A DNA stretch of 64,000 nt, from the NCBI GenBank assembly GCA_047946875.1, contig CP181398.1, positions 1,233,329-1,297,328 on the forward strand. The letters run 5' to 3'. Positions 10,728 through 62,261 of the stretch are shown here, piece by piece. The number at the start of each line of letters is the position of its first letter. The stretch's first letter is position 1. A program made the translations under genes and the position numbers. Below the pieces are notes generated by a model. It made no database searches. It was not told the origin of the DNA and was given only the letters and a program-made list of their open reading frames with translations. The DNA is from Candidatus Kerfeldbacteria bacterium (GTDB lineage Bacteria > Patescibacteriota > Patescibacteriia > UBA10025 > JAHIVO01).

Positions 10728-10804
10728 GCTCGTATAGCTCAGTTGGTTAGAGCACCACGCTTATAACGTGGGGGTCGATGGTTCAAGTCCATCTACGAGC
10801 ACCA
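10728..10804 (+). tRNA. tRNA-Ile (anticodon UAU), CCA encoded
   Basis: Hand-folded cloverleaf. 7-bp acceptor gctcgta/tacgagc. D-arm gctc-agttggtta-gagc. Anticodon stem ccacg/cgtgg with loop cTTATAa. T-arm gatgg-ttcaagt-ccatc. Discriminator A plus CCA. Confidence 0.8.
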
Positions 10805-34800: not shown

Positions 34801-35804
34801 ATGAAGGAAATATTAAAACAAATTTCTTTGCTTATCCTTCAAATTTACGAATGAGTATTCAGACTGGCGTGGGTGATTTTGATGGAGATGGTATAAATGA
34901 GATTGTCACTATTCCTGGTGAAGGTTTTGCTCCACAAGTAAGAGTATTTAATCTAGAGGGTCAGCTTGTAGATCAGTTTTTTGCATATCAAACTCATTTA
35001 AGATCTGGTTATAATATGGTAGTTGCAGATATTGATGGTGATGGTAGTGATGAAATTATTACGGCACCTATGGCCGGTGAAGCTCCTCATGTTAGGATCT
35101 TTAATGGTAAAGGAGAAGTAGAAAATCAATTTTTTGCCTACGACGAAATGTTTAAAGGAGGGGTTAATTTGACAACTGGTGATGTAGATGGAGATGGTAA
35201 TATTGAAATAATTACTGCGCCTGCTTCAGGTGGCTCACCTGATATTAGAATCTTTAATAGTGATGGTTCTCAGGTAACTGGCTTTTGGGCATATTCTTCT
35301 GCTTTACGTGGTGGCTTTGATGTTTCTACTGGTGACTTAAATGGAGATTCGGTTGTTGATATATTAGTAACTCCTGGTGAAGGATTTGGTCCACAAATTG
35401 CTATGTTCACAGGAGATGGAACATTGATTGGAAGATTCATGGCATTTGCTGATACATTTAAGGGTGGCATTAATGCGGTCGTAGGGGATGTTACTGGCGA
35501 TTCGCAAAGTAATATAATTGTTACTCCGTTAAGTAATGGTGGTCCACAAGTTAGAGTATTTGATTACCAAGGTAATCATGTGTCACAGTTCTGGGCCTAT
35601 GCATCAACTTTAAGAGGTTCATTTGTTCCTTTAATATCTGACATTGATCAAGATGGAACAAACGAAATTGTAATAGCACCAGGTAATGGTTTTGGACCTC
35701 ACTTACGTGCATTTGAGTATGATGGAACTATTACTAGTAGTTTCTTTACTCATAATGAAGGTTATCGAGGAGGTATAAATCTAATGAGTATACCCACTTT
35801 TTAA
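31881..35804 (+). CDS. Large exported protein: N-terminal signal/anchor, multiple prealbumin/CarboxypepD_reg-like domains, C-terminal about 9x FG-GAP/VCBS-like repeats
   Basis: 1307 aa. Hydrophobic N-terminus, AQA cleavage-like site. Repeated about 90-aa Ig-like modules (TGxV.D..G.PI..A.V). C-terminal repeats paralogous to those of the 893-aa protein. Confidence 0.75.
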   Translation: MSRKKILKSILHFVKVSVYMVVMFTMTFSYSFIGAPQADAVTTGTITGRIMAGGSPVDIGDVGLNLVNAPGVDPVGTNPDGTFTFIDVPVSYYQLDTHINDTVALAGYMNISVSNIEVTAGQTTDVGDIALTQATKTITGTVTRQGTGTAVVDAQISAFPFEGMGSGVNATTDSNGDYTLYLTGGKWGLNVSGGYDEEHNPIPVDWIYSGMPQDQNFADDNTVESRVANFEVVTANSFVNGKIVYPNGTPKNDLNIDLFSFSGGGAFGRTDSSGNFTIRTAAGNFELSAWFPHDEQQYSLPRQQISVVANQTLNLGTIYIVEKTSQIKGVVKTSTGIPVENVNVSAFSMMGSGPGDNAWTQTAADGSYSLYVTSGMWGVDVQTNPESVWVPDGTQKQYQVAENQIISNANFTLIKADVTINGRIVNTQGVLQSDFFGYANVMDQDMQFGPGPGKFFGGQIGGGTFQIKIPSQVMTKIMVTTFVEPGSPYSIQEDITLTVAPNGTYDVELVLVPNDAVLTGTVKDQKGNVISGFEFGDVFVMGEKGQWNNAFINPDGTYTMSLRSGTYDGRGAFIRGGGYIDKPPQFEDGGVVIKPGTTIWNPVVYKADAKINVTIKDPDGNLLGGFGFAFAHEDFEGDPGIGFKDSMEAGGEILGGKGSINVVGGKTYLVGAPPPPKYDSENWMSPEEQEVFVAANGTASVVLQYKKADGVIKGTVTFEDGSPIPFGFISGWSENGANSGTPNFGSTFSLPVTKNGIWHINADTFSGSEYFTSGETVIKTPDSTGFVVERNFVLSKSDFLFPEPKCATWDSTQPKVINLSDGTSLTFPARSLATSGNVTVCAQPTVNLKPEKTKKPAKGFGYTLTATDSSNQTISTFNSAVTISMKVEADKLAELGITTDDLLPAFFNTTTNKWDTVNNATYDAVNDLLSFTTTHFTDYAIVTGVTITGSGPVASDIIASPANNGGPHVTVWDYEGNIKTNFFAYPSNLRMSIQTGVGDFDGDGINEIVTIPGEGFAPQVRVFNLEGQLVDQFFAYQTHLRSGYNMVVADIDGDGSDEIITAPMAGEAPHVRIFNGKGEVENQFFAYDEMFKGGVNLTTGDVDGDGNIEIITAPASGGSPDIRIFNSDGSQVTGFWAYSSALRGGFDVSTGDLNGDSVVDILVTPGEGFGPQIAMFTGDGTLIGRFMAFADTFKGGINAVVGDVTGDSQSNIIVTPLSNGGPQVRVFDYQGNHVSQFWAYASTLRGSFVPLISDIDQDGTNEIVIAPGNGFGPHLRAFEYDGTITSSFFTHNEGYRGGINLMSIPTF

Positions 35805-46292: not shown

Positions 46293-49250
46293 ATGATGAA
46301 AAAGTACAACCATAAAGCCATTGAAAAAAAATGGCAAAAATATTGGGAAGACAATAAAATTTGGCAGGCTGACGATAAGGGGTCTGGTGAAAAATATTAT
46401 ATTTTGGATATGTTCCCTTATCCATCAGCTGAAGGGTTGCACGTAGGTCATCCTGAAGGATATACAGCTTCTGATATTGTCACAAGATATCAGAGAATGA
46501 ATGGAAAGAATGTTCTACATCCTATGGGTTTTGATTCTTTTGGCTTACCAGCTGAGAATTATGCTATTAAGACAGGTACTCATCCAGTCAAAACAACAGC
46601 TAAAAATATTAATAACATGCGGAAGCAGATTAAATCTCTTGGCTTTTCTTATGATTGGGATAGAGAAGTGATTACTTCTGATCCAAGTTATTACAAATGG
46701 ACCCAGTGGATATTCATTCAGCTATTCAAACATGGTCTTGCTTATGAAGCTGATGCTCCAATTAATTGGTGTCCGTCTTGTAAAACTGGACTAGCAAATG
46801 AAGAAGTAGTGAATGGTAAATGTGAGAGATGCGGTTCTGAAGTAACTAAGAAACAAATTAAACAATGGTTGGTAAAAATTACTGACGATAAATATATTGA
46901 AAGACTGGAAAAAGATTTAGACGATTTGGATTGGCCCGAAAGTATTAAACACCTCCAGCGAAATTGGATTGGTAGGTCAGAAGGAGCGGAAGTAGATTTT
47001 CGTGTCATTGCGAGCGATAGCGAAGCAATCTCACTTAATAGTAATAAAGACGCTGAGATTGCCATGTCGTCTTCGACTCCTCGCAATGACATTATTAAAG
47101 TTTTTACTACTCGTCCTGATACATTGTTTGGAGCGACTTATATGGTGCTGTCTCCTGAGCATGAGTTGGTTAATAAAATTACTACAGATAAACAACAAAA
47201 AGATGTTCATAATTATCAAATAAAAGCGTCAGGTAAATCCGATCTTGAGAGAACAGATCTTGCTAAAGATAAGACAGGTGTATTTACGGGTGCCTATGCT
47301 ATCAATTCTGTTAATAAAGAAAAAATTCCAATTTGGATTGCAGACTATGTGTTAAGTTCTTATGGTACTGGAGCGATTATGGCTGTACCCGCGCATGATG
47401 AACGTGATCATGAATTCGCTAAGAAATTTAAACTACCGATTGTTGAAGTGATTAAACCATCACGGGTTATGCCAAAAACACATCCTCCTATGGGTAGTGC
47501 GGCTGCGTGGGGAATTCAAGATTCTGATTTAGAATATACATGCTGGATTGGTGACGGTGAAATGATAAATTCAGGTAAGTATGACAGCATGAATTCAGTC
47601 GATTTTAAAAAAGAAATCACGACATGGTTAGAACAAAAAAAAGTAGGAAAAAAGGCAGTTAATTATAAACTTCGTGATTGGTTGTTTTCTAGACAAAGAT
47701 ATTGGGGAGAACCTATTCCTATTGTGCATTGTGATGATTGTAAAAATAGGATTGAATCAGGGGCAACTGAAATACATTTTTACAATCAATCTTTTTGGGA
47801 TGATATTTTAAACGGTAAGAAAACAGTTGAAACAAGGGCATTAAACCCAGATGAGCCTGAAAGATATTTTGGTGATATTAAAGCGGGACAGTACTTAAAA
47901 TTAAAAAACATGACGACGGGAGCTATTCAGTATGCAGAAGTTATGGCAGATAAAATCTATTCTGATATAGATAAGTTTTATTCTGACAAAAAAATGTTTG
48001 TAGGGATGGGGACTGGCAATACGTATAAGTCGGGAGAAGATTTATTGCAGGCGTATGCTTTTACTTCTGATTATATAGAACGAATAAAAAAGAATGGTTT
48101 AGTCGCTTGGAAAATAAAATTAGTTTCACCTGGAAATGTAGCAGTACTTGAAAAAGATCTTCCATTAGAATTACCTGACATCAAAAAATATGAACCAACT
48201 GGTACAGGTGAGTCGCCGTTAGCAACTATAGATAAGTGGGTAAATACTAAATGCCCGGAGTGTGGAGGTAAAGCTAAGCGGGAAACAAATACCATGCCAC
48301 AGTGGGCTGGATCAAATTGGTACTTTCTGCGTTATTGCGATCCAAAGAATGATAAGATGTTAGCTGACCCAGAGAAGTTAAAAAAGTGGTTGCCAGTAGA
48401 TTTATACATAGGTGGTGCTGAACATGCGGTCCTACATTTACTCTATGCAAGATTTATTTATAAATTTTTGTTTGATATTGGTGTTGTGCCTAAGGAGATT
48501 GGTGACGAGCCATTTGCAAAATTAAAAAATCAAGGATTGATCATGGGAGAGGATGGAGTGAAGATGTCTAAGTCGCGTGGTAATGTTATTAATCCAGATG
48601 ACGTGATCAAAGAGTACGGAGCAGATACGCTACGTATGTATGAGATGTTTATGGGACCATTCGAAGATAGTAAACCATGGGATACTAAAGGGATAGTTGG
48701 TATCAAAAGATTTTTGGATAGGGTTTATAATGCGCATACTAATGTAGTTGATAGAGATTTGGAAAAAGCAGAGGATAGACTTTTACATACACTGATAAAA
48801 TTTGTTACGAATGATATTGAAGATTTTAAATTTAATACATGCGTTAGTCATTTTATGGGGCATAGTAATTATTGGTCTTCAGATAAATCATTATCATTCA
48901 AAGAATATGAAATTTTTTTAATAATACTATCCCCTTTTGCTCCACATATGTGTGAAGAGCTTTGGGAGGATCTAGGTCATAAAAAGAGTATTTCAAAAGA
49001 GTCATGGCCTGAATTTAGTGAGGAGATTATTAAAAGAGAGAAGGTTACTATCGTTGTGCAAGTAAATGGGAAAGTGCGTGATAATATAACTGTTAGTAGA
49101 GGAGCTGATGAAGAAGATGTTATTCTTGAAGCTTGTGCTAGTATTAAAGTACAAAAATACATTCCTACTGAAAAAAAGAATGGAAAGATAATCTTTAAAG
49201 GTAAGGGTAAACATTTTGTGAAAGATCGAATAATTAATTTTGTAGTTTAA
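46293..49250 (+). CDS. leuS: Leucine--tRNA ligase carrying an inserted ASCH domain
   Basis: HIGH (HVGHPEGY). CP1 editing ([12 protein letters not shown]). KMSKS (VKMSKSRGN). An extra about 135 aa lie between the catalytic-core zinc knuckle (HCDDCK) and the LPLELP segment. Confidence 0.95.
47745..48153 (+). other. ASCH (YqfB-like) domain inserted within leuS
   Basis: [42 protein letters not shown]. Compare E. coli YqfB [34 protein letters not shown]: the G-K-T-x-E/T-x-R motif and following GD are conserved. Confidence 0.7.
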
Positions 49251-49255
49251 ATAAT

Positions 49256-49726
49256 ATGATACCAAAAGTAGAATTAATGTATAATTATGATTATGCAAAG
49301 AAGCTATATAGAGGTGCTGGTAATTATGAAGATATTTGGCGGAGAGTAGTAGGCCTTGGCGCTGATTTTGAAAAAATATATAATGAATATATAGAATATA
49401 TCTTGGTTAATATTGAAAAATATTCTGGCTTTGCCTGGCAGGAACATGCAGAAGTTACTTTTCCAGTATATTTAGCAGATGTTGATGTGTCATTTGCGCA
49501 TCCACTCACTTTGAAAGTAGATGATGATCCTGAAGTGATGTTGACCGACCTGATTGTTCAGCTGTCCAATAGAAATATGTTTTTCGGTTTTACTGACGAT
49601 GATGGAAAAATAAAATGTTTTAGATCTATAACTAACAAAATTTTGAATGATTTAAAAATTGTAGAGATTGAAGCAGATGATTTTGATTTGGCTAAAAAAA
49701 CAATTAAAGAATATATAAAAAAATAG
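49256..49726 (+). CDS. Hypothetical protein (156 aa)
   Basis: Complete ORF 5 nt after the leuS stop. No family recognised. Confidence 0.5.
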   Translation: MIPKVELMYNYDYAKKLYRGAGNYEDIWRRVVGLGADFEKIYNEYIEYILVNIEKYSGFAWQEHAEVTFPVYLADVDVSFAHPLTLKVDDDPEVMLTDLIVQLSNRNMFFGFTDDDGKIKCFRSITNKILNDLKIVEIEADDFDLAKKTIKEYIKK

Positions 49727-49738
49727 TAAATAAATAAT

Positions 49739-50350
49739 ATGGAAATAATAAAAATAAATCCTAATTCTCCAGAGTCAACAAAAATTAAAGAAGCTGCTAA
49801 AGTTATTAAAGAAGGAGGAGTGGTAGTCTACCCCACTGATACAGCTTATGGGTTAGCTGCTGATGCTCTTAATGCAGATGCAATTGGCAAATTGTTTATT
49901 ATTAAACAAAGAATCCAAAAGCCGTTGCCAGTAATAGTAGATTCAGAAAAAATGTTAGAAAAAATAGCAGAAGTTACAACGGAAGAACAAAAGATTATTA
50001 AAAAATATTGGCCGGGGGCTTTAACTCTAATTTTCAAGAAAAAAGATATTATTCAACCTTTTTTGACTTTAGGGTTACCAACGGTAGGTGTAAGAATGCC
50101 TGACTATAAAATTGCTATACAGTTAGTTAAGGAGGCGGGTACTCCTCTGACTTCAACAAGCGCAAATATCAGTGGCAAGGGTAATTGCTATACACCGGAG
50201 TGTGTACAGAGAATGTTTCAGGGAGCTGATAGTCAGCCAGATTTAATTATGGATGCGGGAGAATTGGATGAGGTTCCTGTTTCAACAGTTGCTCAAGTAG
50301 AAGGAAAAAAAGTTAATACATTAAGAGAAGGGCCAGTTAAAATAAAATAG
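49739..50350 (+). CDS. tsaC: L-threonylcarbamoyladenylate synthase (Sua5/YrdC/YwlC family)
   Basis: VVVYPTDTAYGLAADA and SANISG motifs of the YrdC fold. Confidence 0.85.
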   Translation: MEIIKINPNSPESTKIKEAAKVIKEGGVVVYPTDTAYGLAADALNADAIGKLFIIKQRIQKPLPVIVDSEKMLEKIAEVTTEEQKIIKKYWPGALTLIFKKKDIIQPFLTLGLPTVGVRMPDYKIAIQLVKEAGTPLTSTSANISGKGNCYTPECVQRMFQGADSQPDLIMDAGELDEVPVSTVAQVEGKKVNTLREGPVKIK

Positions 50351-51541
50351 ATGGAAAAAAAATCAATTCATAAACATTTACATTATTTTTCCAAACATCC
50401 TTCACGTGGTTTAAAAGAATTATATTGGTCAGTTGGATTGATGGACCTTGGCGTAGCAGCGGTAACAATATTTGAGCCAATTTTTTTATTTACTTTAGGA
50501 TATTCCCTGAAAGAAATAATGTTTTTTTATTTGCTGGTGTATCTTGTTTATACATTAATTCTTCCTTTGTTTGGTAAAGTTGTTGCACATTTTGGTTACG
50601 AACATTCAATATTATATAGTCAATTTTTCTTGATTGCTTTTTATGTTTCGTTATTTGCTATTTCATCAATACCTGTTTTCTTTTATATAGCACCATTATT
50701 TTTGGCAATACAAAAAGCACTATATTGGCCTTCATATCATGCTGATTTTACTATCTTTTCTAATGATGAACAGAGAGGAAGGGAGTTGAGTGGCATAGAG
50801 ACTTTAAGTATGATTGTTTATGTAATTGGGCCATTGGCTGGCGGTTTTATATTGGTATGGTCAAATTTTAGCACTTTATTTATTATTGCTTCTGCTCTAT
50901 TTTTACTGTCTGCAATTCCTTTGTTACGTATTAAAGAAATTCATAGTAAACAAAAATTTCAATATAAAGATGTTTTTAAGCATTTGATTGATAAAGATCA
51001 CCGACGCAATTTTATTGCTTTTTTAGGTTTTGGGGAAGAATTAATAGTGCTAACTGTTTGGCCGATATTTATTTATACTCTTATTCAAAACTATGCAAGT
51101 ATTGGTGAAATAGTTGCAGGTGCAACATTGATTACTGGTGGCGTTGTCTTGTTGATTGGGAAAATTTCTGATAAGTATGGACAAATGAAATTATTAAGAT
51201 TAGGTAGTGCCATATATTTTATAAGTTGGATTTTTCGTGCGTTCGCTTCTAAGGGATGGCACATACTAAGTTTAGATACTACATCACGTTTTTCAAAAGA
51301 AATGGTTTTTTTACCGATAGAGTCTATGACTTATAGTGCTGCAAAGAAACTCGGCCCACTATCGCATGGAATTTTTTATGAACAATCTACGGCTATTGCA
51401 AAAGTGTTTGCTGCATCTTTAGCAATAATTGTAATATATTATTTCGTTGATCCGTGGATGCCAATATTTTGTTTAGCTGCTGGATTCTCGTTGTTATATT
51501 TATTTTATAAAAAAAGTAATCCAAAAAATGGACCTAACTGA
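50351..51541 (+). CDS. MFS-type transporter (about 12 TM)
   Basis: ATG directly follows the tsaC stop. Repeated 6+6 hydrophobic helices. Confidence 0.65.
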   Translation: MEKKSIHKHLHYFSKHPSRGLKELYWSVGLMDLGVAAVTIFEPIFLFTLGYSLKEIMFFYLLVYLVYTLILPLFGKVVAHFGYEHSILYSQFFLIAFYVSLFAISSIPVFFYIAPLFLAIQKALYWPSYHADFTIFSNDEQRGRELSGIETLSMIVYVIGPLAGGFILVWSNFSTLFIIASALFLLSAIPLLRIKEIHSKQKFQYKDVFKHLIDKDHRRNFIAFLGFGEELIVLTVWPIFIYTLIQNYASIGEIVAGATLITGGVVLLIGKISDKYGQMKLLRLGSAIYFISWIFRAFASKGWHILSLDTTSRFSKEMVFLPIESMTYSAAKKLGPLSHGIFYEQSTAIAKVFAASLAIIVIYYFVDPWMPIFCLAAGFSLLYLFYKKSNPKNGPN

Positions 51542-52379
51542 ACTTAATACAATCAAATCTTTAGTAAAGCAAAATGATATAAGGCCGACTCGTCAGTCAG
51601 GCCAAAATTTTTTGATATGTAAAGATGTACTAGATAAAATCATTAGAACTTCTGAAATATATCCACAAGAAAAAGTTTTAGAAATAGGTCCAGGCTTTGG
51701 AACATTAACTAACCGATTATTAGAGGCACAAGCATCTGTAACCTCAGTGGAGCTAGATAGAAATTTGGCAAAGTTTTTAAGTAATAATAAATTATTCAAA
51801 AATTTGAATTTAATTAGAGGCGATATTATACATGAGTGGCTAGGTTTGAAAAAAGATTTTAAAAATTTGGATTATAAACTTATTGCAAATTTACCTTATA
51901 GTCTTACATCTTTGATTTTTAGAATGTTTTTGAGTGAGAGACCTAGACCAAAAAAAATAGTAGTGCTAATTCAAAAGGAAGTTGCAGAGAGGATTGTAGC
52001 AGTTCCAGGTAAGATGAGTATGTTATCAATAGCAGTTCAATTTTATGGAGAACCAAAGATAATTGATATAGTGAAACCAGAATGCTTTTGGCCATCACCT
52101 GAAGTGCAATCTGCTATCCTTGAAGTGGATAACATTGGATTGGATACAAAAAAATATAAAAAAATGTTAGGTAATGTAAAAGATGAACAATTCTTTAAAA
52201 TAGCGAAAATCGGTTTTTCAGCAAAACGTAAACAATTACATAATAATCTAGCAAATGGTTTACATAAAAAAAGTGAAGAAATTAAGGCTTTTTTAACCAA
52301 TTTAAACATAAACCCGGCAATCAGGGCTCAAGATCTTACTATAAAACAGTGGATAGATATATCTAAAAATATACAGTAG
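51528..52379 (+). CDS. rsmA: 16S rRNA (adenine1518/1519-N6)-dimethyltransferase
   Basis: GQNFL and SAM-binding LEIGPGFGTLT motifs (KsgA). Confidence 0.9.
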   Translation: MDLTELNTIKSLVKQNDIRPTRQSGQNFLICKDVLDKIIRTSEIYPQEKVLEIGPGFGTLTNRLLEAQASVTSVELDRNLAKFLSNNKLFKNLNLIRGDIIHEWLGLKKDFKNLDYKLIANLPYSLTSLIFRMFLSERPRPKKIVVLIQKEVAERIVAVPGKMSMLSIAVQFYGEPKIIDIVKPECFWPSPEVQSAILEVDNIGLDTKKYKKMLGNVKDEQFFKIAKIGFSAKRKQLHNNLANGLHKKSEEIKAFLTNLNINPAIRAQDLTIKQWIDISKNIQ

Positions 52380-52445
52380 TTTAAGATTTAATATATTTGA
52401 CATTATGGTCTGATTATGATATAATGGTTTAGTAAATTAGGATAC

Positions 52446-53318
52446 ATGGATCAAAAAAAAATAAATAATACATCTCAAGAAAAAGACCTTTCTAATTCAT
52501 TTTCTTCAACTAGCCGTATCAAAAATTTGATGGCTAATAAAGGAGGATCTGAAAAAAGGCTATTTATTTTATTAATAGCAATTGTAGTTATTGGTGTGCC
52601 ACTTAGTATATGGCAAATTAATAGTCAAATTAATAGTCCATTTGCCCCAAAAAAAATCATTGAAGTTGAAAATATAAATTTCTCTATAGCCGTTGATTAT
52701 CAGTTACCTGTTATGGAAAATTTACGTGATTTAGATACAGATAATGATGGTATTACTGATTATGATGAGCTTTATCGTCATAAGACAAGCCCATATATTG
52801 CTGATAGTGATAGCGATTCGATCTTAGACAAGATAGAGATTGATCAAGGTACTGATCCAAACTGTCCAGAAGGAGCTGTATGTAGTAGAGAGGAAGTACC
52901 AGCGCTAGTTGAAATTAACGATGAATTGGCTGATCAATTAGAAAATATGTCAGTAGATCAGCTAAGGCAGTTAATGATTGATTCAGGTGCACCAGAAGAG
53001 CAAGTTAATAAGATATCTGACGAAGATTTATTGAAAACTTTCCAAGATATATTAGCTGAAGAAGGAGGTACTACTAATACTCAAGAGAACATATTAAATT
53101 TAAATTTAGAAGAAGATAATACAAATACCGCAATAAATCTCGAGACGATAGATTATGAAACACTTTTTAACCTTAATGATAGCGAAATAAGAGCTCTGTT
53201 AATTGAGGGAGGAGTGCCACAAGAGACACTGGAACAGATTGATGATGAATTACTTCGAGAAATATATTTAGAGAGTCTTGGACAAAATTTTGAAGAATTA
53301 TCTCAGCAACAACAATAA
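52446..53318 (+). CDS. Hypothetical acidic membrane-anchored protein with DxDxDG (thrombospondin-type-3-like) Ca-binding motif and internal repeat
   Basis: Single TM (LFILLIAIVVIGVPL). DTDNDGITDYDE. Two repeats of the form ..GAPEEQVNKISDEDLL.. / ..GVPQETLEQIDDELL.. Confidence 0.5.
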   Translation: MDQKKINNTSQEKDLSNSFSSTSRIKNLMANKGGSEKRLFILLIAIVVIGVPLSIWQINSQINSPFAPKKIIEVENINFSIAVDYQLPVMENLRDLDTDNDGITDYDELYRHKTSPYIADSDSDSILDKIEIDQGTDPNCPEGAVCSREEVPALVEINDELADQLENMSVDQLRQLMIDSGAPEEQVNKISDEDLLKTFQDILAEEGGTTNTQENILNLNLEEDNTNTAINLETIDYETLFNLNDSEIRALLIEGGVPQETLEQIDDELLREIYLESLGQNFEELSQQQQ

Positions 53319-53360: not shown

Positions 53361-56300
53361 ATGTCAAAAGGAAAAAATAAAATAAGTAGCTTTAAAAAGA
53401 AATGGATTTTAGTAGGGGTTCTTGTTTTTTTTGCTATACAACTTTTGATGCCTATTATAGTCATGCCAAAACAAGCTAATGCTGTTTTGGGTGTTGGTGA
53501 TACTACAATTACTTTGGGTGATATTCCTAGATTAATTTGGGATAGTATTTCTAGTGCTATAAAAAAAGCTGGTGCAGTGGCATTTAAAAACGCTGTAAAA
53601 ACTTTTGCAAACAATTTAGCTTATAATGCAGCTACCGGACTAGCAACAGGAGAAAAAGGGGAAAAGCCATTATTTACCACAGAGCCACTAAAAATATTAG
53701 AACAGGCGGCAGATATAGCTGCTGGAGATTTTTTGGATTCTGTGGCTGGGGATTGGTTAGGCAAAGCAAAATGTGCCGGATATTATGGTGAAGATGTTTC
53801 TTGTAAGGATGATCAAGGTTGTCCAACACCAGTTTTAGATTGTACTGCTATAGAAAATTTTACATCATTACAAAAATCAATTTGTTCTGAAGGGGTAGAA
53901 TTTATGGAAGTATGTTTGGCTCAAGGATGTGTAATTGAAGAAATTGAAAATAGAGAAATGTTTAATTTTCTAATGGACATTGGAGTTGTTGGCGTAAATA
54001 ATGAGCCGTATATTGAAGGATCTCCAAAATGTACAAATGATTTTTCTCTTTGTGATCAATCAGATTTATTTAAAGTTAACATTAATATAAAGACTAGAGC
54101 CTCATTAGATCCGGCAACAAAAGATACTATAAGTGGTAAATGTCAGGTAACTGATATTATAGATATAATGGAGCAAAATGTAGATGATGCAAATAATCTT
54201 TGGGAGGATCTAACCAATAAAGAAAAAAATAATTTATATTTACAACAAATAGCTAAAGGATTTAATCCAGAGGTGAGTGAGTTAGGGGCATATATTACTA
54301 TTAGTAATCGAACTAAAGATGAGGCAGCAAAGGCTCAAAAAAACACAGAATTTTCTGAACAGCTAAGTGGTGGTCTGAGTAGTGTTACCTCTAAAATTTC
54401 TGGTGCGGTTAAGACGCCCGGTCCATTGCTCGAGAGTGCGATAAATTCTACATTTAAAACTAGTTTAGATCTACAAAACACTTTTACTGGAGAAATTATT
54501 GCTGATGCTATTGGAACTTTTACAAGTACTTTAGCAAATAAGATGATGGATAAGTACTTTGAAGGTTTAGTAGAGCCAGAGCTTAATAGTGGAGGTGGTA
54601 GTAGTAGTCTTTTAGGAGGTTTACTTGGTGGAGTTAGGTCTGGTATTACTGCAGCAAAATTACTTTTTGCTGATTTGAAACAAGTAAATTATTCAGTTGG
54701 CGGTAATTTGGATATTTTATCGAGTTTAGCAAGTTGTCCTGATACAGAGGATCCTACCCAAGATACATGTGTTATTGATTCTAGATTTTATACTGCTATA
54801 GAACAGCAGTTGACTGTACGCGAGGCTCTTGATGCTGGTCTATTAGATGGTAATAAATTATTTGGCTATGATATCAATGGTAATCAACCAGAATATTATA
54901 ATGGTTATCCTTATAGAAGCTTGGTTATTTTAAGGAAATATAGAGTACTTCCAGTTGGTTGGGAATTAGCTGCTAACTACATGAGAGAGTATGCTCGTGG
55001 TTTTTATAGTTTGAATATTTTAATTGATGAATACGATAATATTGATTCACCATTTTATCATTTAGTTGATCCAAACTGGGTTCTGAAAGCTCCGTCAGTT
55101 TATTGTGAAAGACAGGGTGCTGGAGATAAAATAGAGTATTCTGATGCAATAAGGTCTGAAGATACTAATAAACTTCCAGACAGTGGCATTGATAGTAAAG
55201 ACGCTGCTATCCCAATTGTAACGAGAAATTCTAATTATTGTGCTGATGAACAATTATGTTTAATAGAAAATGACGATGGTTCGTGTAAAAAATATGGTTA
55301 TTGTATAGAAGAAGAACCTATTTGGAAATTTGCTGGGGCAGCTTGTCAAGAAGAATATAGTTCTTGCCAAAGTTTTGGTGAAAATGAAAATTATTTAACC
55401 AACAGTTTAGATTATGGTACTTGTAATTCTGAGAATGCTGGTTGTCAGTGGTATTGTCAGGATTATGATCTTGTATCTGGAGAGTGGCAATGTACCAATC
55501 AAGATCCTCCAGCTGGTGGTAATAAAATAAGTTTTAATGATAACGCAGAAAGTTGTAGTGCGAATGGTGAAGGTTGTAGTGAATATATACCAATAACAAA
55601 TAGCGGAGCAAACTTAGTAAAAAATTCTAATTTTGAGGATTTTGATACAACTGCAGATGTAGCACTAGCTACAGATGGCCTAAGAGATTTAGCTTTACCA
55701 ATCCCTCCGCCATTTGGAGGTACTAGTCTGCCTGACGATTTTGCTGATTGGTCTCATAATTATGTTAATGGTGTTGATCCATGTCAGCAAAGAAGTTTAG
55801 CTTCTTCAGATTCTTTTGGGGGATTAACTGCAGCTAGAATTCATCAATATCCAGCTTGCCCCTCAGGTGATGGTCAATATATGACTCAGCGTTTAGATAC
55901 AGGATATCTCACAGATAATAGAACATTTACTGTTTCATTTTATGCTAAGCGCGCTGAAGGTGGAACTTGTAATGCAACTAATGATAATGTATTAATAGAT
56001 TTTACCAGAAATTTTGCCCCAGCTTCTCCCGGCCCACCACCAATACTAGCAGATGTTCAATATGTTGGTGGTCAGACAGCAAATGTATCCGCTGATTGGA
56101 CCAGATATGCTCTAACATTTAACTTTGATAGTCAGCCTGCTTCACGATGGAATTGGGGAACAACAGCTCTAAATAATCACTATAAGCGTACCTTCATATT
56201 ATTTGTAAGACATAATAGCACAGATTGTGATATTCTTATTGATAATATTCAAGTAGAAGAGGGAGGATTGACCAATTATAAGGCTTATGAAGATTCAAGT

Positions 56301-59300
56301 AAGACATATCTTAAGAAGGCTCCTGAGTACTTAAATTGTACAGGCGGTCCTTTTGATGATCCGTTATGTTTAAATTTTGCTCTTAACTGTTCTGCTGATG
56401 AAGTTGGCTGTCAGAAATTTACATCTACTACTTCAGGTCAGAGTGTTACGGGGACAATCACAAATATAGGTATTTGTAATCCGAATGATCCATCTTCTTG
56501 TGACCAATGTCCTCTTGAGTTTGTCGGCTGTCAGGCTTATCGTGAATTAGCTACCGAGAATGTACCATATAGACCTGCTGTGGATCCAGTATCATTTGTT
56601 CAGGAGACTGGTTTGAGTTGTCCTGCTTCTGCTGTCGGATGTGAAGAATATACAAATTTAGAAGAAATTGCCGCCGGTGGTGAAGGTAGAGAATATTATA
56701 GTTGGATCAAGCAATGTGTTGAAGAAAGTGATCCGAATGTATCTACATACTATACTTGGGAAGGTTCGGAAGAATTTGGATATCAATTAAAAGATTATCA
56801 GTTGAAGACAAGTAATGTAGCAGATCCAGATATTTTAGGACCACCACTGAACACTACTAAATATGGTCCGTGTACTAATATGGCACCAGAAGATCCTTAT
56901 TTAGATACACTTGGACTAGGTTGGAATACATGTATTGATGATGAAGTCGTTGATAGGAATGGTGATGGAATTATTGATGAGACTTATGATATGCAGGTAT
57001 GTACTTTAGCTGAGGTAGGTGTTGACCCTGATTGTGCAGAATTTATTGATGAGGAAGGATATAGATTCTATCGTCTTAAATCAAAAGTTATTTATACTTC
57101 ATCAAATTGCAAAGTTTATCGTAATAGTTTAGATAGTGGAGCTACATGTCAGGCAGGTTTTTGTACAAATAATAATTCTATTTGTGCTACTGATTCGACA
57201 TGTACTGATATTTTATATCACATGATTCCTAATCAGGGTAATTCATGTTCAGCGCAATACGCAGGATGTCGGGCGTATAAAGGTAATGCTGGGGATAATA
57301 GCCATGTCATTTATAGTTATAATTTTGAATCTGGCGATTTGGATACTTGGAATTCTGGAGTACCAGCAAATCCTACGTTACTGAGTAATGAGTCAGTTAA
57401 TTTTGGTGGACATTCAATGTTATTTTTTGACGCTGCATATTATCGATGGTTAACTGCAGCAAATGAGTTGTTACCGATCAAAGGAAATTCTTATAATTTA
57501 TCTTTTTGGGCCAAGGCAGGCACGAGTGATTCTATAATAGAGGCTTCTTTCGGACAGATGGGATTTACTAAGAAATTTGAAGGGTCAGCGGTGGCTAGGG
57601 TCGGTGAGTGGAATCAATACGAGGTAGGACCATTATATGTTGATTGGGATGTTCTGCCAAATTCTATATCCATGTTTTTCGAAACCACAGGTTCGGTTTA
57701 TATTGATAATATACAACTTTCAGAAATTGTAGATAATATTTATAAGGTCAAAGATTCATACACCAGATGTGATGGATATGAAAATTGTGATCAGTATACT
57801 GACATACCGGGTGCTACTCATTATCTAAAATCATTTTCATCCCTCTGTGGTGAAGATAAGATTGGTTGTGAAGCAATGATTGATACAAAAAATAGTTCTA
57901 CTCCAGGAGAATTAGAATATGAGGTGGCAGCTGGAGTGCTAAAATATATACCAAAAGATACCACAATAACATTAGTTAATGATCCAAATAAGAGATGCTC
58001 GGCCGGTGAAAAAGGCTGTGAATGGTTGGGAGTGCCAACTATTAATTCTGTTGGGAATGTTAGCTCTTTTGATGATGCATATATAAAAAACGATCCAGAT
58101 AAATATGATACGGATTTATGTTTATTTGAAGAGAGTGGGTGTAAAGAATATATAACTCCAGAAGGATCTAAATATTATTTCAAAGATCCAACTTCAAATA
58201 TTTGTGAATATAAGAGAGTTGCTGGTCAATCAAAATCTGGTTGGTATCAAAATGAAACAAATGTTGGTGAGCCTGATTGTCCTGTGACTGTGGGTGTATG
58301 TAAAAATAGTCCAATAAGTGATGAAGGCAAAGCTTGTGGTACTGATTTGGATTGTGATGATGGAGCTGGTTTTTGTGCAATAGGTTATTGTGAAGATAAT
58401 ACTACGTTGTGTTCTGACAACGGAATGTGTGTTGGTGATTGTATTCCTTCGTTTAATGTTGTCCCACAACCAAATGGAGAATGGGCTGGTGTTTGTCCAA
58501 TAACAGCTTCTACATGTACAGAATATCGTGATCCAGAAAAACCATTTTTTTATGACTCAGCTACTCCAGGTGATATTACTTATTGTGATGTTACTTTAGC
58601 AGATGGTGGTAGCGATGGAGATAATACATATGACTGTGATTCATACTATTATTTATCAAATGAAATTGATGAGGCTTCATGTAATGGCTTGGTAGACAGA
58701 GAAGAAGGATGTTTGTTGTTTAATAACACGGCAGCAGAAAATCTAATATTCTATGCAGATGACACAAAGAACGGTACAGCTCCAGAAGTTTGCGATATAA
58801 CCACCGTACCACCGGAAGAATGTGACTCTAATATTATTATAAAAGTAAATAAAGATAGAGTGTGTGGCCGTTGGATCGACTGTGAAACTTCTATTCCACC
58901 TACTGATGGGTCTAGTAATAGTTTGTGTACTGAAATTAATATTTGTGAGAAAATGGATAGTCTATCAACAAATTGTATTAAATGGGATGGAAAAGCTTCC
59001 GATATTAATCAAACTTACGATACACCAGCCTTTGTAGATAAAATTAAAAATTATTCTGGATTAGTGTTGGCTGGTCTTGATTGGGATAAGCGATGTACTA
59101 ATGATACAAATAAGGTTTGTTTAGTTGACACTGATTGTGGTACTTTGCCAGCACATAAATGTTCGGATCCTCAAATTTACGAAGGAAGCTTGCCAACAGC
59201 GTTGATGTCTCAGGTTGGTTCAGCTGCGTTTAATGGTAACTTGATACCAGATGGAGATTTTGGTGATAGTAATTATAAACTTAACCAAAAATTAAGCTGT

Positions 59301-62261
59301 CCATTATCAGGGGGTGATGCAGAATGTGAAGAAATTAAGGGGGAACCTAACGAACTTGAACTAGATCTTAATCAATTTTTTACAACAAAATGGTATCCAA
59401 GAGAGATTGACCCTCCAGCACCATCAACAATATATTGGACGGAGGAAACTGACAAGGGTATAGTCCCCTCTCCGAATGGTAATTTGGATGAAAATAATAT
59501 TGCTAAGATTGTTACACCGGGTGATGTGAATAAAACTGGTATTTCCTATAACCTTGGTGATACTATAATAAAGGATTATGAATATGCGATGTCTTTCAAA
59601 TTAAGATGGTCAAGTGTCCCATCAGAGTTTGATAAGATAAGAGTGGAGCTAGAATATAGAGACCCAGATGGAGTTCTTGTGAATTGGAATCAACGTTTTG
59701 CTGAAGATATTACGCCAAGTGAAAATTGGACAGAATATGCTCTTGGGCCGATACCGGCTGGATTTGATGAAGGGCTTACTACAATTACTAATTATGGAGA
59801 TGTTTCTCTAAATATTATTCATGTATATGATCCAGCTGGTGGGGCGGTACCTTCAGTAACATTTTATATCGACGATGTATCTATGGATCCAGTTTTGACT
59901 ACAAAGAATGGTACTTGCCAAACAGTTAGTGATGATCTAGCTGTCCAAACTGCTTATGAAGTGACTGGGTTTGCTGATAAACAATGTAATTCAATTGGTG
60001 ATTGTGCGACGGCTGGATTTAATGACTTGGCAGTAAAATGCGAAGGTATGGAGAATATTGCAAGATCTTGTAGATTATATCCAAAAGACGATTCTAGATA
60101 TTGTACTTATGTTGATCAAAATAATACAACCTTCCAAGGTTGGTATGGATATTGTCTTGAGCAGGATCCAAATAATTCAGAATATTGTTTGAACTGGTGG
60201 CCAGTTGATTTGCTTAGTGGTGAATCAGATGTATTTGGAACCTTACCTCCGTTTAATTTGAAAATACGTCAGCCTCTATATATGTGTCTGGAAGCGGAAG
60301 GTAATTATAATAATGGATTATTTATTGGAAATATTGATGTAAATGATAATAATTGGAATTCGTGCCACGACGATGATAACGGCAATAGTAGTAAAGATCT
60401 TCCAGAAGTAGCATCTCCTCTAGTTGGTATTACAAAGGGTTATCAACAGACTATGGTAACCCCTCATGATAGAACTCCTAATTGGCATGGTGATAGCTGT
60501 AATCAACAAGGAGAAGTTTATAATTTGATTCCTAATAGAGATTCAGGCACACACCCCGGAGTTTTATTTTCTTGTGATGATGGTGATGGTGGTTGTGGTT
60601 CACCTTCTGCTCCCGCAACACCTCTCTTACCAGAAGATCAATATTATATGTGGGAAATTGAAAGGATAGTTGTAGTTGGTCAATTATGGAGTCATGAAGA
60701 TTGGGATCCTAAAAATGCATCAAAATATCGACAATATAATGATGCAGGGAATGAATCTATGGATTTTAGTAACTCTGCTGTTTATGGGGATGACCCTAAT
60801 ATTAATGGATTTCCGTATTTTATTTTTCCAACGGATTATATTAATATTAATAATCTAAAAGCCTCTTGGTCTTCTCCCGGTAGTACAGTATGGAGCGCTT
60901 CTTATGGAAGTTTTAATATAGATGTAGGTGGTAATGATGGTAATTGGGACCCTGCAAATGTTCATAAATCAAATATTTTTACTTTTAGCCTTATTTTTGA
61001 TGCTAATGATAAATTAACTACAATTGGTACGTATATTCATGATTATGATAATGGAGGGGCATTTTGGGCAACTCCAATCTTTTATCTAAAAGATCAGTGT
61101 ACAAGAATTGTGGGAGTGAATAAAGCTGATAATACAAATAAAGCTTGGGCTAGTAAATTAAATAGTAATAGTTCTTATCGAGTTCCAGATCTTGATTATA
61201 CTTATAATCAATTTTCTAGTCCTTATGGCGGTATTATTCAGCCTAGCCCGATTACTTCTGAACCCGTAAATTGGAATGCTTCTAATGGGGCTGGACCGCT
61301 ATTTCTACAAAGTCCTACCAATCATGCTCATGCTGGAAGTGCCTATAGTTTTGTATCTCCAAATGATTCAGCTGGTCGCTTGTGTAGTGTGATTGTTGCA
61401 GGAGCTAATTACTCAACACAAAATGTATGTCTAGATATGGAGGATGTAGAAGAATGTAATCTTGCTGGTGGTACTTGTATTGGTACAGGACAAGGTTTTT
61501 GTGAACAAGATCCAACTATATTCTGTCGTCCAACACTACCAGTAGCTGATCCAATATTTGATACAGATTGTGAGGATTCTAGTTTCGATTATTACGGTCC
61601 ATGTATTATGGGTACTGGTGGTGCTGCAGGTATAATAAATTATACTGACGGAATGGATATAATAAGACTATTATTTGCCAATACTTTTCAAGTTTGGGAT
61701 TGGAATGATACAGGTGGTTTGTATGAAGTATCTAGTTCAGTAGTTTCTACTGATTTAGTAGATCAGGATGCAAATACCTCAATTTATAATGGTATGCCTT
61801 TGTGTCTACCTGTTGGTTCTCAATTCCGTACACCAAATACTTATTGTGGAATACCTCCAGTCTTAGATGTTACGTTAAGCAATTCACCTGGTCAGACTGT
61901 TGATTTGAGTCATGCAGGTGGAAGAGTTTCATTTACTGTTAATGTCAAAGCAGATCCTGAGCAATTACCTATTACGCAGATAGAGATTGATTGGAACGCT
62001 TTGGACGGGGATAGTGTGGATCAAACACTGTTTGGACCTTTTGATTCTGGTACCTTTATAATTAATCATGTTTATACTACTTCAGGTTCTGGAGGACAAA
62101 CTTTTCAGCCACAATTTAAAGTTATAGATAATTGGGATTGGTGTGGAGCATCTTCTGATGAACCATGTACTAATAATACTAATTGTCGTAATACAGGTGA
62201 ACCTGGTTATACTTGTGATTGGGTAAATCCTGGAATTTTTGTTAATGTTAGTGCAATATAG
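53361..62261 (+). CDS. Giant (2966 aa) cysteine-rich, Asn/Gly/Asp/Thr-rich exported surface protein
   Basis: Uninterrupted 8.9-kb ORF. N-terminal TM/signal (WILVGVLVFFAIQLLMPIIVMPKQANA). More than 100 Cys, often in C-x(2-8)-C pairs. No recognisable enzymatic motif. The antisense ORF 53354-53614 is rejected. Confidence 0.85.
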   Translation: MSKGKNKISSFKKKWILVGVLVFFAIQLLMPIIVMPKQANAVLGVGDTTITLGDIPRLIWDSISSAIKKAGAVAFKNAVKTFANNLAYNAATGLATGEKGEKPLFTTEPLKILEQAADIAAGDFLDSVAGDWLGKAKCAGYYGEDVSCKDDQGCPTPVLDCTAIENFTSLQKSICSEGVEFMEVCLAQGCVIEEIENREMFNFLMDIGVVGVNNEPYIEGSPKCTNDFSLCDQSDLFKVNINIKTRASLDPATKDTISGKCQVTDIIDIMEQNVDDANNLWEDLTNKEKNNLYLQQIAKGFNPEVSELGAYITISNRTKDEAAKAQKNTEFSEQLSGGLSSVTSKISGAVKTPGPLLESAINSTFKTSLDLQNTFTGEIIADAIGTFTSTLANKMMDKYFEGLVEPELNSGGGSSSLLGGLLGGVRSGITAAKLLFADLKQVNYSVGGNLDILSSLASCPDTEDPTQDTCVIDSRFYTAIEQQLTVREALDAGLLDGNKLFGYDINGNQPEYYNGYPYRSLVILRKYRVLPVGWELAANYMREYARGFYSLNILIDEYDNIDSPFYHLVDPNWVLKAPSVYCERQGAGDKIEYSDAIRSEDTNKLPDSGIDSKDAAIPIVTRNSNYCADEQLCLIENDDGSCKKYGYCIEEEPIWKFAGAACQEEYSSCQSFGENENYLTNSLDYGTCNSENAGCQWYCQDYDLVSGEWQCTNQDPPAGGNKISFNDNAESCSANGEGCSEYIPITNSGANLVKNSNFEDFDTTADVALATDGLRDLALPIPPPFGGTSLPDDFADWSHNYVNGVDPCQQRSLASSDSFGGLTAARIHQYPACPSGDGQYMTQRLDTGYLTDNRTFTVSFYAKRAEGGTCNATNDNVLIDFTRNFAPASPGPPPILADVQYVGGQTANVSADWTRYALTFNFDSQPASRWNWGTTALNNHYKRTFILFVRHNSTDCDILIDNIQVEEGGLTNYKAYEDSSKTYLKKAPEYLNCTGGPFDDPLCLNFALNCSADEVGCQKFTSTTSGQSVTGTITNIGICNPNDPSSCDQCPLEFVGCQAYRELATENVPYRPAVDPVSFVQETGLSCPASAVGCEEYTNLEEIAAGGEGREYYSWIKQCVEESDPNVSTYYTWEGSEEFGYQLKDYQLKTSNVADPDILGPPLNTTKYGPCTNMAPEDPYLDTLGLGWNTCIDDEVVDRNGDGIIDETYDMQVCTLAEVGVDPDCAEFIDEEGYRFYRLKSKVIYTSSNCKVYRNSLDSGATCQAGFCTNNNSICATDSTCTDILYHMIPNQGNSCSAQYAGCRAYKGNAGDNSHVIYSYNFESGDLDTWNSGVPANPTLLSNESVNFGGHSMLFFDAAYYRWLTAANELLPIKGNSYNLSFWAKAGTSDSIIEASFGQMGFTKKFEGSAVARVGEWNQYEVGPLYVDWDVLPNSISMFFETTGSVYIDNIQLSEIVDNIYKVKDSYTRCDGYENCDQYTDIPGATHYLKSFSSLCGEDKIGCEAMIDTKNSSTPGELEYEVAAGVLKYIPKDTTITLVNDPNKRCSAGEKGCEWLGVPTINSVGNVSSFDDAYIKNDPDKYDTDLCLFEESGCKEYITPEGSKYYFKDPTSNICEYKRVAGQSKSGWYQNETNVGEPDCPVTVGVCKNSPISDEGKACGTDLDCDDGAGFCAIGYCEDNTTLCSDNGMCVGDCIPSFNVVPQPNGEWAGVCPITASTCTEYRDPEKPFFYDSATPGDITYCDVTLADGGSDGDNTYDCDSYYYLSNEIDEASCNGLVDREEGCLLFNNTAAENLIFYADDTKNGTAPEVCDITTVPPEECDSNIIIKVNKDRVCGRWIDCETSIPPTDGSSNSLCTEINICEKMDSLSTNCIKWDGKASDINQTYDTPAFVDKIKNYSGLVLAGLDWDKRCTNDTNKVCLVDTDCGTLPAHKCSDPQIYEGSLPTALMSQVGSAAFNGNLIPDGDFGDSNYKLNQKLSCPLSGGDAECEEIKGEPNELELDLNQFFTTKWYPREIDPPAPSTIYWTEETDKGIVPSPNGNLDENNIAKIVTPGDVNKTGISYNLGDTIIKDYEYAMSFKLRWSSVPSEFDKIRVELEYRDPDGVLVNWNQRFAEDITPSENWTEYALGPIPAGFDEGLTTITNYGDVSLNIIHVYDPAGGAVPSVTFYIDDVSMDPVLTTKNGTCQTVSDDLAVQTAYEVTGFADKQCNSIGDCATAGFNDLAVKCEGMENIARSCRLYPKDDSRYCTYVDQNNTTFQGWYGYCLEQDPNNSEYCLNWWPVDLLSGESDVFGTLPPFNLKIRQPLYMCLEAEGNYNNGLFIGNIDVNDNNWNSCHDDDNGNSSKDLPEVASPLVGITKGYQQTMVTPHDRTPNWHGDSCNQQGEVYNLIPNRDSGTHPGVLFSCDDGDGGCGSPSAPATPLLPEDQYYMWEIERIVVVGQLWSHEDWDPKNASKYRQYNDAGNESMDFSNSAVYGDDPNINGFPYFIFPTDYININNLKASWSSPGSTVWSASYGSFNIDVGGNDGNWDPANVHKSNIFTFSLIFDANDKLTTIGTYIHDYDNGGAFWATPIFYLKDQCTRIVGVNKADNTNKAWASKLNSNSSYRVPDLDYTYNQFSSPYGGIIQPSPITSEPVNWNASNGAGPLFLQSPTNHAHAGSAYSFVSPNDSAGRLCSVIVAGANYSTQNVCLDMEDVEECNLAGGTCIGTGQGFCEQDPTIFCRPTLPVADPIFDTDCEDSSFDYYGPCIMGTGGAAGIINYTDGMDIIRLLFANTFQVWDWNDTGGLYEVSSSVVSTDLVDQDANTSIYNGMPLCLPVGSQFRTPNTYCGIPPVLDVTLSNSPGQTVDLSHAGGRVSFTVNVKADPEQLPITQIEIDWNALDGDSVDQTLFGPFDSGTFIINHVYTTSGSGGQTFQPQFKVIDNWDWCGASSDEPCTNNTNCRNTGEPGYTCDWVNPGIFVNVSAI

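Follow-up and report, generated by a model that had tools for sequence, protein, structure and literature searches.

E. coli YqfB, an ASCH protein, hydrolyses N4-acetylcytidine (ac4C), with the free nucleoside proposed as its primary substrate, and each of 19 tested ASCH proteins, which between them represent both types of the octapeptide, reduced ac4C in tRNA, also ac4C12 in a D-stem (bioRxiv 10.64898/2026.02.27.708502). The Lys and the Glu or Thr of the octapeptide are essential for this tRNA deacetylation, with Lys and Glu reported as essential in TthASCH, EOLA1 and TRIP4, and for an isolated archaeal ASCH catalytic domain no tRNA binding was detected, binding needing a separate helix-turn-helix (HTH) domain (bioRxiv 10.64898/2026.02.27.708502). 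The zinc hairpin ZN-2, on the other side, is specific to bacterial and mitochondrial leucyl-tRNA synthetases (LeuRS), and mutation of its cysteines in another bacterial-type LeuRS abolished aminoacylation (PMC4005665). Both come together in a gene of a Candidatus Kerfeldbacteria bacterium that is described here: within 64,000 nucleotides of contig CP181398.1 (positions 1,233,329 to 1,297,328; this whole stretch is termed the window, and coordinates refer to it), a bacterial-type LeuRS is interrupted in its ZN-2 hairpin by what is almost certainly an ASCH-fold domain.

The insertion in the zinc hairpin

The LeuRS open reading frame (ORF) scores 1017.6 bits against TIGR00396 (cut-off 548.4) and is thus of the bacterial type, it contains the Pfam domains tRNA-synt_1, LeuRS editing domain and Anticodon_1, and in a phmmer search of PDB sequences it matches Thermus thermophilus LeuRS (1h3n) at 3.6e-211. 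A deposited protein (P0048, 'leucine--tRNA ligase [Candidatus Kerfeldbacteria bacterium]') is identical except that it starts one codon later (984 residues), and it has the insert as well. The HIGH and KMSKS motifs and the editing motifs in CP1 (TTRPDT, residues 272-277, and AHDERD, residues 367-372) are intact, and none of the four ZN-2 cysteines is lost.

In the phmmer alignment, residues 2-483 correspond to residues 1-442 of T. thermophilus LeuRS and residues 614-755 to residues 443-582, and the 130 residues in between have no counterpart. The insertion point thus lies between C442 and G443 of the T. thermophilus enzyme, after the first CxxC knuckle of the ZN-2 hairpin and before the segment G-VPVPE..LP..LP, and 'P.P' and 'LPxxLP' are 146 residues apart in the window LeuRS, versus 16 in 84 of 119 related LeuRS. 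A preliminary description of this DNA had placed an insertion of about 135 residues at 47745-48153, which is right to within a few codons, the 3' end given there lying about seven codons inside LeuRS. The insert is in frame, and its G+C content is near that of the remaining gene. No direct repeats that might be a sign of mobility were found around it in a repeat search at the DNA level, and an assembly chimera can be rejected, as the identical in-frame architecture is found in dozens of independent assemblies and flanking direct repeats are absent. What interrupts this otherwise complete LeuRS is a real insertion, in frame and maintained vertically.

A perfect 13-nucleotide inverted repeat (47735-47747 / 47776-47788; RNA fold of -17.3 kcal/mol, z = -2.6) spans the 5' junction of the insert. 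Because it is not conserved in the closest homologue (L083), it is probably due to chance.

Fold and family of the insert

The identity of the insert as an ASCH domain, suggested in the preliminary description together with a resemblance to YqfB, does not come from direct comparison. Alone, the insert reaches 14.2 bits with PF04266 (E 0.073), which is under the gathering score of 21.2, and a single-sequence phmmer search against PDB sequences gave nothing meaningful. Free-standing proteins of 103-132 residues, which were detected by a word-seeded search, can be aligned with the insert over the whole length of both and have the motif KT[VI]ETRALNP[DE]EPERYFG in common with it, and PF04266 recognizes one of these free-standing homologues above the gathering score (P0002, 27.6 bits; P0001 has 19.7 bits), while the insert itself remains below. 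Ten of 45 family members match PF04266 at E<=0.01, the best with 1.2e-6. When a family profile from the alignment of 45 sequences (A2) was used in hmmsearch against PDB sequences, it found PH0355 (2z0t, 7.8e-9), PF0469 (1xne, 2.5e-7) and PF0455 (1s04, 2.9e-7) over the full length; on 2z0t, profile positions 11-124 cover residues 9-108 of the 109-residue chain, and GKKKIEGR of PH0355 is aligned to GKKTIETR of the family. These three structures were deposited as hypothetical proteins, which we take to be of the ASCH/PUA-like class.

An AlphaFold2 (AF2) model of the insert computed with A2 has a mean local confidence (pLDDT) of 92.5 and a predicted template modelling score (pTM) of 0.84. With this model, Foldseek found nine matches in the PDB at E<=1e-3, all of which belong to one group, namely PH0355, PF0455, YqfB (9kyf/9kyh), PF0470, 3s9x (a L. 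crispatus protein named as ASCH domain) and 1t62 (EF3133, Pfam DUF984), and the weaker, non-significant matches were to other PUA-like folds (YTH, EVE and the N-domain of ATP-sulfurylase). Together with the intact octapeptide GxKxxExR, the profile and model leave it almost certain that the insert is an ASCH-fold domain, a PUA-like beta-barrel, of the GKER type, in agreement with the preliminary description. The resemblance to YqfB seen there is that of the ASCH octapeptide (GKKTVETR, residues 508-515). The insert does not qualify as a YqfB equivalog: Glu takes the place of Thr in its octapeptide, and its score with the NCBIfam YqfB model (PRK04980 / NF003443; 12.2 bits, E 0.17) is far below the cut-off of 93 bits.

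The direct Pfam score under threshold is what could be said for a different identity of the insert, be it a zinc or leucine-specific elaboration of LeuRS, an intein, or a chimera of the assembly. The probability of this is close to negligible in view of the A2 and Foldseek matches, the free-standing homologues, the absence of a Hint fold and the recurrence across assemblies. For a lineage-specific LeuRS elaboration, it is the profile and fold evidence and the existence of full-length homologues of 103-132 residues outside LeuRS that lead to rejection. An intein had been dismissed already in the preliminary description, and rightly so: the segment from K484 to ...LVSP|G614 has an ASCH and not a Hint fold, the N-junction is followed by Lys, the C-junction reads ...VSP|G, so that the junction residues of inteins are missing, and the sole intein-like Foldseek match has an E of 0.45 and a probability of 0.16.

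Conservation was analysed in 80 distinct LeuRS-embedded copies of the domain. In the octapeptide, K510, E513 and R515 are invariant (100%) and G508 is conserved in 90%, which indicates that the motif is under purifying selection; F496 is conserved in 99%. The octapeptide is directly followed by a subfamily-specific loop, in which P519 (100%), N518 and F526 (99% each), E521 (97%), L517 (95%), G527 and A516 (94% each) are conserved, and the alignment with PH0355 is gapped at several positions of this loop.

Distribution in synthetases and other hosts

Relatives were surveyed for the same insertion, and it is widespread. The domain is present in 23 of the 120 best LeuRS clusters (115-146 bits with the profile hidden Markov model, HMM), where the gap from 'P.P' to 'LPxxLP' has 144-147 residues, and phmmer against 1.84 billion representatives gave 44 matches, many of which are LeuRS or valyl-tRNA synthetases (ValRS). 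A scan of the GTDB species genomes with one peptide pattern gave 86 loci, and of the 76 that were analysed, at least 58 encode a LeuRS in which the domain occupies the ZN-2 site; as the scan depends on this single pattern, the GTDB counts are lower bounds. According to the record titles, the lineages are Kerfeld-, Buchanan-, Uhr-, Lipton-, Moran-, Nomura- and Taylorbacteria, Paceibacterota, Saccharibacteria, Gracilibacteria, Absconditabacteria, Peribacteria and Dojkabacteria/WS6, although several taxonomic labels of metagenome-assembled genomes (MAGs) are probably unreliable, and ORFs of lineages with genetic code 25 fragment under translation table 11. Five loci carry DPANN labels (Nano-, Pace- and Woesearchaeota: L011, L012, L013, L017, L018) and encode a LeuRS that has the insert in the same place. 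Two of them were tested, L011 and L017, and are bacterial-type LeuRS (TIGR00396, 918 and 857 bits), and the insert-bearing LeuRS on DPANN-labelled contigs reflect either inter-domain transfer or mis-binning.

LeuRS is not the only host. Among the 76 GTDB loci, five are ValRS with the domain at the site homologous to ZN-2 of LeuRS (after ...WFGHRIPVW), and at least two, or about five when unclassified flanks are read, are ValRS that have it at the start of the editing domain; an N-terminal fusion to ValRS is found in P0025. A fragment of an aspartyl-tRNA synthetase (AspRS) with the domain (P0199) makes AspRS probably a further host. Outside the synthetases, the domain is free-standing or is fused to NUDIX or Ser_hydrolase (P0019, P0027, P0026), and the gene of the free-standing homologue P0001 lies between cysS and dus. 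Independently of all these, a canonical ASCH domain (PF04266, 28.7 bits) has entered LeuRS at a different site in another member of the Kerfeldbacteria (P0107). In the 64-kb window itself the domain occurs once, and the scanned ORFs include no further synthetase.

Some further arrangements were observed along the way. The ValRS of Patescibacteria that carry the same ASCH subfamily (L063, L066, L078, L081, P0018, P0025, P0032, P0034) have it at three positions, namely at the N-terminus, where the editing domain starts, or at the counterpart of the ZN-2 site of LeuRS, often with an inserted His_Phos_1 domain. In a MAG labelled Limisphaerales (L074:3044-6442), a threonyl-tRNA synthetase (ThrRS; TIGR00418, 545 bits) has GNAT, ASCH-like and GNAT domains in tandem before the catalytic core. 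Free-standing relatives of 127/128 residues are encoded in tight gene strings (L088:3612-4651; L089:4001-5231), one with the order NUDIX - ASCH-like - DUF3850 and another directly upstream of an Fpg-type DNA glycosylase, and several adjoin genes of an AddA-like helicase-nuclease and a FemAB-family protein. In L067, L080 and P0012 (Absconditabacterales / Peribacteria), an ASCH-like domain follows ...YLDLIKLDPSYRIWFKD... in a host that does not look like a synthetase; these ORFs are broken under table 11, with genetic code 25 as a possible cause.

Insertion sites and exchange of guests

The ZN-2 hairpin is one of at least four insertion hot spots in patescibacterial LeuRS, the others being the start of the editing domain, the interval between the AHD motif and SRQRYWG, and the region after KMSKS. 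Depending on the lineage, these sites hold Ser_hydrolase (PF06821), NUDIX, Ham1, a DUF559 endonuclease-like domain, ASCH, or unassigned segments of about 245 residues, and a single protein can have up to three such guests (DUF559, NUDIX and ASCH in L024; Ham1, NUDIX and ASCH in L055; NUDIX, ASCH and Ham1 in P0014); the relatives in this survey include P0051-P0108, L024, L048 and L055. In ValRS, ASCH is combined with His_Phos_1. ASCH is the sole guest of the window LeuRS, the first hot spot of which has a low-complexity loop of 27 residues where relatives hold Ser_hydrolase, Ham1, canonical ASCH or DUF559. The window shows one instance of a wider habit of Patescibacteria, in which surface loops of aminoacyl-tRNA synthetases accommodate hydrolases of small size, be it NUDIX, Ser hydrolase, Ham1, His phosphatase or ASCH. 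Defined hot spots of this kind are a feature of the class Ia synthetases in Patescibacteria.

The occupation of the ZN-2 site changes over short distances. In 10 of 120 LeuRS relatives it holds a Ser_hydrolase (alpha/beta-hydrolase) of about 200 residues, and among LeuRS that are 68-80% identical to that of the window (host sequence only) the site is filled with ASCH, filled with the alpha/beta-hydrolase, or empty, which is why the module is probably dispensable for leucylation. Only 13 of the 23 ASCH-bearing LeuRS have a nearest neighbour that bears ASCH as well. The insert also diverges faster than its host, with about 40% identity where the host has 60-77%, and at close range host identities of at least 0.8 go with insert identities of 0.60-0.87. 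The window LeuRS and P0049 are about 79-80% identical in host and insert alike; an outlier is the pair of the window LeuRS and P0050, where the host is 73-77% and the insert 38-40% identical, which suggests a replacement of the cassette or a burst of divergence. Taken together, this distribution points to repeated gain, loss or replacement of the module.

Possible function of the insert

Judged from the biochemistry of the family, the insert would be an active accessory hydrolase and not a filler, an amidohydrolase of the N4-acyl-cytidine type that is tethered to LeuRS by two short linkers. It may deacylate a modified cytidine in tRNA that visits LeuRS, or in free nucleosides, and LeuRS would supply the proximity to tRNA in place of a dedicated RNA-binding domain. 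To this reading, a LeuRS-tethered accessory amidohydrolase that acts on tRNA or nucleosides, a probability of about 0.5 can be assigned. As to its parts, the insert is somewhat more likely than not to be catalytically competent, and tRNA as its substrate is a less likely, tentative proposal. The preliminary description had suggested a sensing of tRNA modifications or an editing-related activity; this hypothesis is plausible in view of the recent biochemistry of ASCH proteins, and the unrelated hydrolases that recur at the same site give rise to a rival reading. A link to tRNA is favoured by the hosts, since most large hosts that can be classified are aminoacyl-tRNA synthetases (LeuRS, ValRS, ThrRS, AspRS), and also by the second ASCH subfamily that independently entered LeuRS (P0107) and by the position of the P0001 gene between cysS and dus.

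Several points weigh against the tethered amidohydrolase and its tRNA link. To our knowledge, C34 of elongator tRNA-Met is the only position from which ac4C is known in bacteria. In the four synthetases the topological location of the domain differs, and this speaks against a constant orientation toward a single site on tRNA, and the embedded copies have a near-zero net charge and thus give no sign of a strongly RNA-binding surface; the comparison of net charge between embedded and free-standing copies was uninformative. Distant free-standing relatives adjoin NUDIX and DUF3850, Fpg, AddA-like or FemAB genes and not tRNA genes, and unrelated hydrolases occupy the same LeuRS site in other lineages. 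A single-sequence AF2 prediction of the full-length LeuRS had a pLDDT of 31.6 and was unusable for docking the insert relative to tRNA.

Part of this evidence fits a hydrolase that merely hitch-hikes on LeuRS, i.e. a housekeeping ASCH enzyme for small molecules, which would salvage or sanitize nucleosides or nucleotides with a modified cytidine and have no functional link to tRNA-Leu. LeuRS, as an essential and constitutively expressed protein, would just provide a surface loop that is permissive for insertion. The unrelated Ser_hydrolase of about 200 residues at the same ZN-2 site in 10 of 120 relatives, the NUDIX, Ham1, Ser_hydrolase and DUF559 guests in other LeuRS loops and His_Phos_1 in ValRS all count in favour of this reading, and so do the relatives that are fused to NUDIX or Ser_hydrolase (P0019, P0027, P0026) or that are neighbours of NUDIX and DUF3850 or Fpg genes, the free nucleoside as proposed primary substrate of YqfB, and the near-neutral net charge. 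The predominance of synthetases among the large classifiable hosts, however, is not predicted by a purely permissive loop, and the second, independent entry of an ASCH subfamily into LeuRS and the place of P0001 between cysS and dus speak against it as well, so that such passive carriage appears somewhat unlikely.

The PUA-like fold, the more distant Foldseek matches to the YTH and EVE reader domains and the synthetase hosts could also be taken to suggest a non-catalytic module that binds tRNA or reads a modified base so that tRNA is bound more tightly or more selectively, a frequent role of PUA-like domains. This is improbable, as the catalytic Lys, Glu and Arg are strictly invariant, a basic surface bias is absent and close relatives function without the insert, and as the isolated archaeal ASCH catalytic domain had no detected tRNA binding but depended on its HTH domain (bioRxiv 10.64898/2026.02.27.708502).

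A different acyl substrate comes to mind with the GNAT-ASCH-GNAT tandem in ThrRS (L074) and with the existence of the NCBIfam model 'ileS_w_GNAT', namely an N-acylated aminoacyl-tRNA or another acetyl-amide product, the deacylation of which might reverse a GNAT-type acetylation of aminoacyl-tRNA. The window LeuRS has no GNAT domain, though, and we know of no ASCH protein that acts on alpha-N-acetyl amino acids. While the chemistry of ASCH proteins, hydrolysis of an acetamide, would be compatible with it (bioRxiv 10.64898/2026.02.27.708502), this purely inferential idea is very improbable.

Returning to the tethered amidohydrolase, its most far-reaching form would be a deacylase that acts in cis, with the ASCH domain erasing ac4C or a related acyl mark on the tRNA held by LeuRS, or the N-acetyl group of aminoacyl-tRNA, as a module of an undescribed system of Patescibacteria and DPANN, in which LeuRS, ValRS, ThrRS and AspRS serve as scaffolds for exchangeable hydrolase cassettes. 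Such a system is unlikely on the present evidence; if it existed, the removal of RNA modifications or a detoxification would be physically coupled to aminoacylation.

Features of the gene and its surroundings

The features of the LeuRS gene and of the genes next to it are listed in Table 1. On the same strand, leuS is followed by five ORFs (49256-53318) that form a partly translation-related cluster. A giant ORF of 2966 residues comes thereafter (53361-62261), and two large FG-GAP/CarboxypepD_reg repeat proteins of 893 and 1307 residues, probably surface proteins, are encoded at 28882-31563 and 31881-35804. ARAGORN detects a tRNA-Ile with a UAU anticodon at 10728-10804. In most bacteria, AUA is read by a lysidine-modified CAU tRNA, and the tRNA-Ile(UAU) may be informative on AUA decoding in this lineage.

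Table 1. Positions of the LeuRS gene, its motifs and insert, and the ORFs downstream
Feature	Position in the window	Strand	Basis
LeuRS host gene, bacterial-type, 985 residues	46293..49250	+	TIGR00396, Pfam, phmmer vs PDB sequences
HIGH motif as HVGH, residues 50-53	46440..46451	+	T. thermophilus LeuRS alignment and motif location
CP1 editing domain, residues 223-447	46959..47633	+	PF13603, 199.4 bits
27-residue low-complexity loop, start of editing domain	47010..47090	+	about 23 residues face a gap in the T. thermophilus LeuRS alignment
ZN-2 first Zn knuckle C480-D-D-C483, directly 5' of insert	47730..47741	+	aligns with T. thermophilus C439/C442
Inserted ASCH-fold domain, 130 residues, 484-613	47742..48131	+	without counterpart in T. 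thermophilus LeuRS
Insert core, residues 493-609	47769-48119	+	family HMM
ASCH octapeptide G508-K-K510-T-V-E513-T-R515 (GxKxxExR, GKER type)	47814..47837	+	motif location, PH0355 alignment
Subfamily-specific loop directly after octapeptide, residues 516-527	47838..47873	+	conservation in 80 embedded copies
21-nucleotide internal tandem duplication (DKIYSDI / DKFYSDK), variable helical part of insert	47948..47989	+	repeat family D1, 76% identity
ZN-2 second Zn knuckle C654-P-E-C657, kept 3' of insert	48252..48263	+	aligns with T. thermophilus CPKC
KMSKS motif, residues 757-761	48561..48575	+	T. thermophilus LeuRS alignment and motif location
156-residue ORF, no Pfam match	49256-49726	same as leuS	Pfam
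Sua5/YrdC/TsaC-family protein	49739-50350	same as leuS	
MFS transporter	third of five ORFs downstream of leuS	same as leuS	
KsgA/RsmA-type rRNA adenine dimethylase	51528-52379	same as leuS	
290-residue ORF with bacterial TSP3 repeat	52446-53318	same as leuS	

Comparison with known systems

A known domain is thus found in a known host, and it is the architecture and the combinatorial pattern for which no description was found in the literature, the databases labelling these proteins as leucine--tRNA ligase. A full-text literature search gave no description of ASCH, NUDIX or other hydrolase insertions in synthetases of Patescibacteria. The role of ASCH proteins as erasers of ac4C in tRNA is a recent proposal, and a natural fusion that puts an ASCH domain with an intact catalytic motif into an aminoacyl-tRNA synthetase offers a testable link from the removal of a modification to aminoacylation. 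With the domain in at least 76 species-level genomes from many classes of Patescibacteria, in at least 58 of them inside LeuRS, the finding bears on the packaging of accessory enzymes in reduced genomes, on the acquisition of domains by aminoacyl-tRNA synthetases, and on LeuRS loops that tolerate large insertions, which is of use for engineering.

As to the guest, its best profile (E 7.8e-9 to 2.9e-7) and structural (E 3.5e-7, TM score 0.76) matches are the Pyrococcus proteins PH0355, PF0455 and PF0469-PF0470 (2z0t, 1s04, 1xne), which are of the same size class and have the same G-K-K-x-I-E-x-R octapeptide. They differ in being free-standing archaeal proteins, deposited as hypothetical, with 16-24% identity to the insert and with gaps across the ALNPEEPERYFG loop in the profile alignment. 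E. coli YqfB (9kyf/9kyh), the N4-acetylcytidine amidohydrolase, has the same fold (Foldseek E 1.2e-5, TM score 0.77 normalised to YqfB), and the N-terminal stretch FF/FY...DDIL.G.KT..R, to which the preliminary description had pointed, is aligned with the insert, but YqfB is free-standing and of the GKTR type (Thr24), whereas the insert is of the GKER type (Glu513). The octapeptide class of the insert is that of the GKER-type tRNA ac4C erasers (TthASCH 2DP9, EOLA1, TRIP4-ASCH, Pku/Afu ASCH; bioRxiv 10.64898/2026.02.27.708502), none of which is embedded in a synthetase; some of them bind tRNA via an HTH domain, while for the insert LeuRS is the putative tRNA-binding partner.

As to the host, T. 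thermophilus LeuRS (1h3n/2byt) has the architecture, the catalytic motifs, CP1 and the four ZN-2 cysteines in common with the window LeuRS, and its leucine-specific domain region (about 583-636) is missing in the window LeuRS and in many related LeuRS. The closest precedent in annotation resources for the combination of both is the NCBIfam model NF040702 'isoleucine--tRNA ligase, N-acetyltransferase domain-containing' (ileS_w_GNAT), in which an accessory enzyme domain is likewise carried by a class Ia synthetase. Guest and host are others there, and the guest in the window is placed inside the zinc hairpin and comes from a combinatorial set of guests that is found at several sites.

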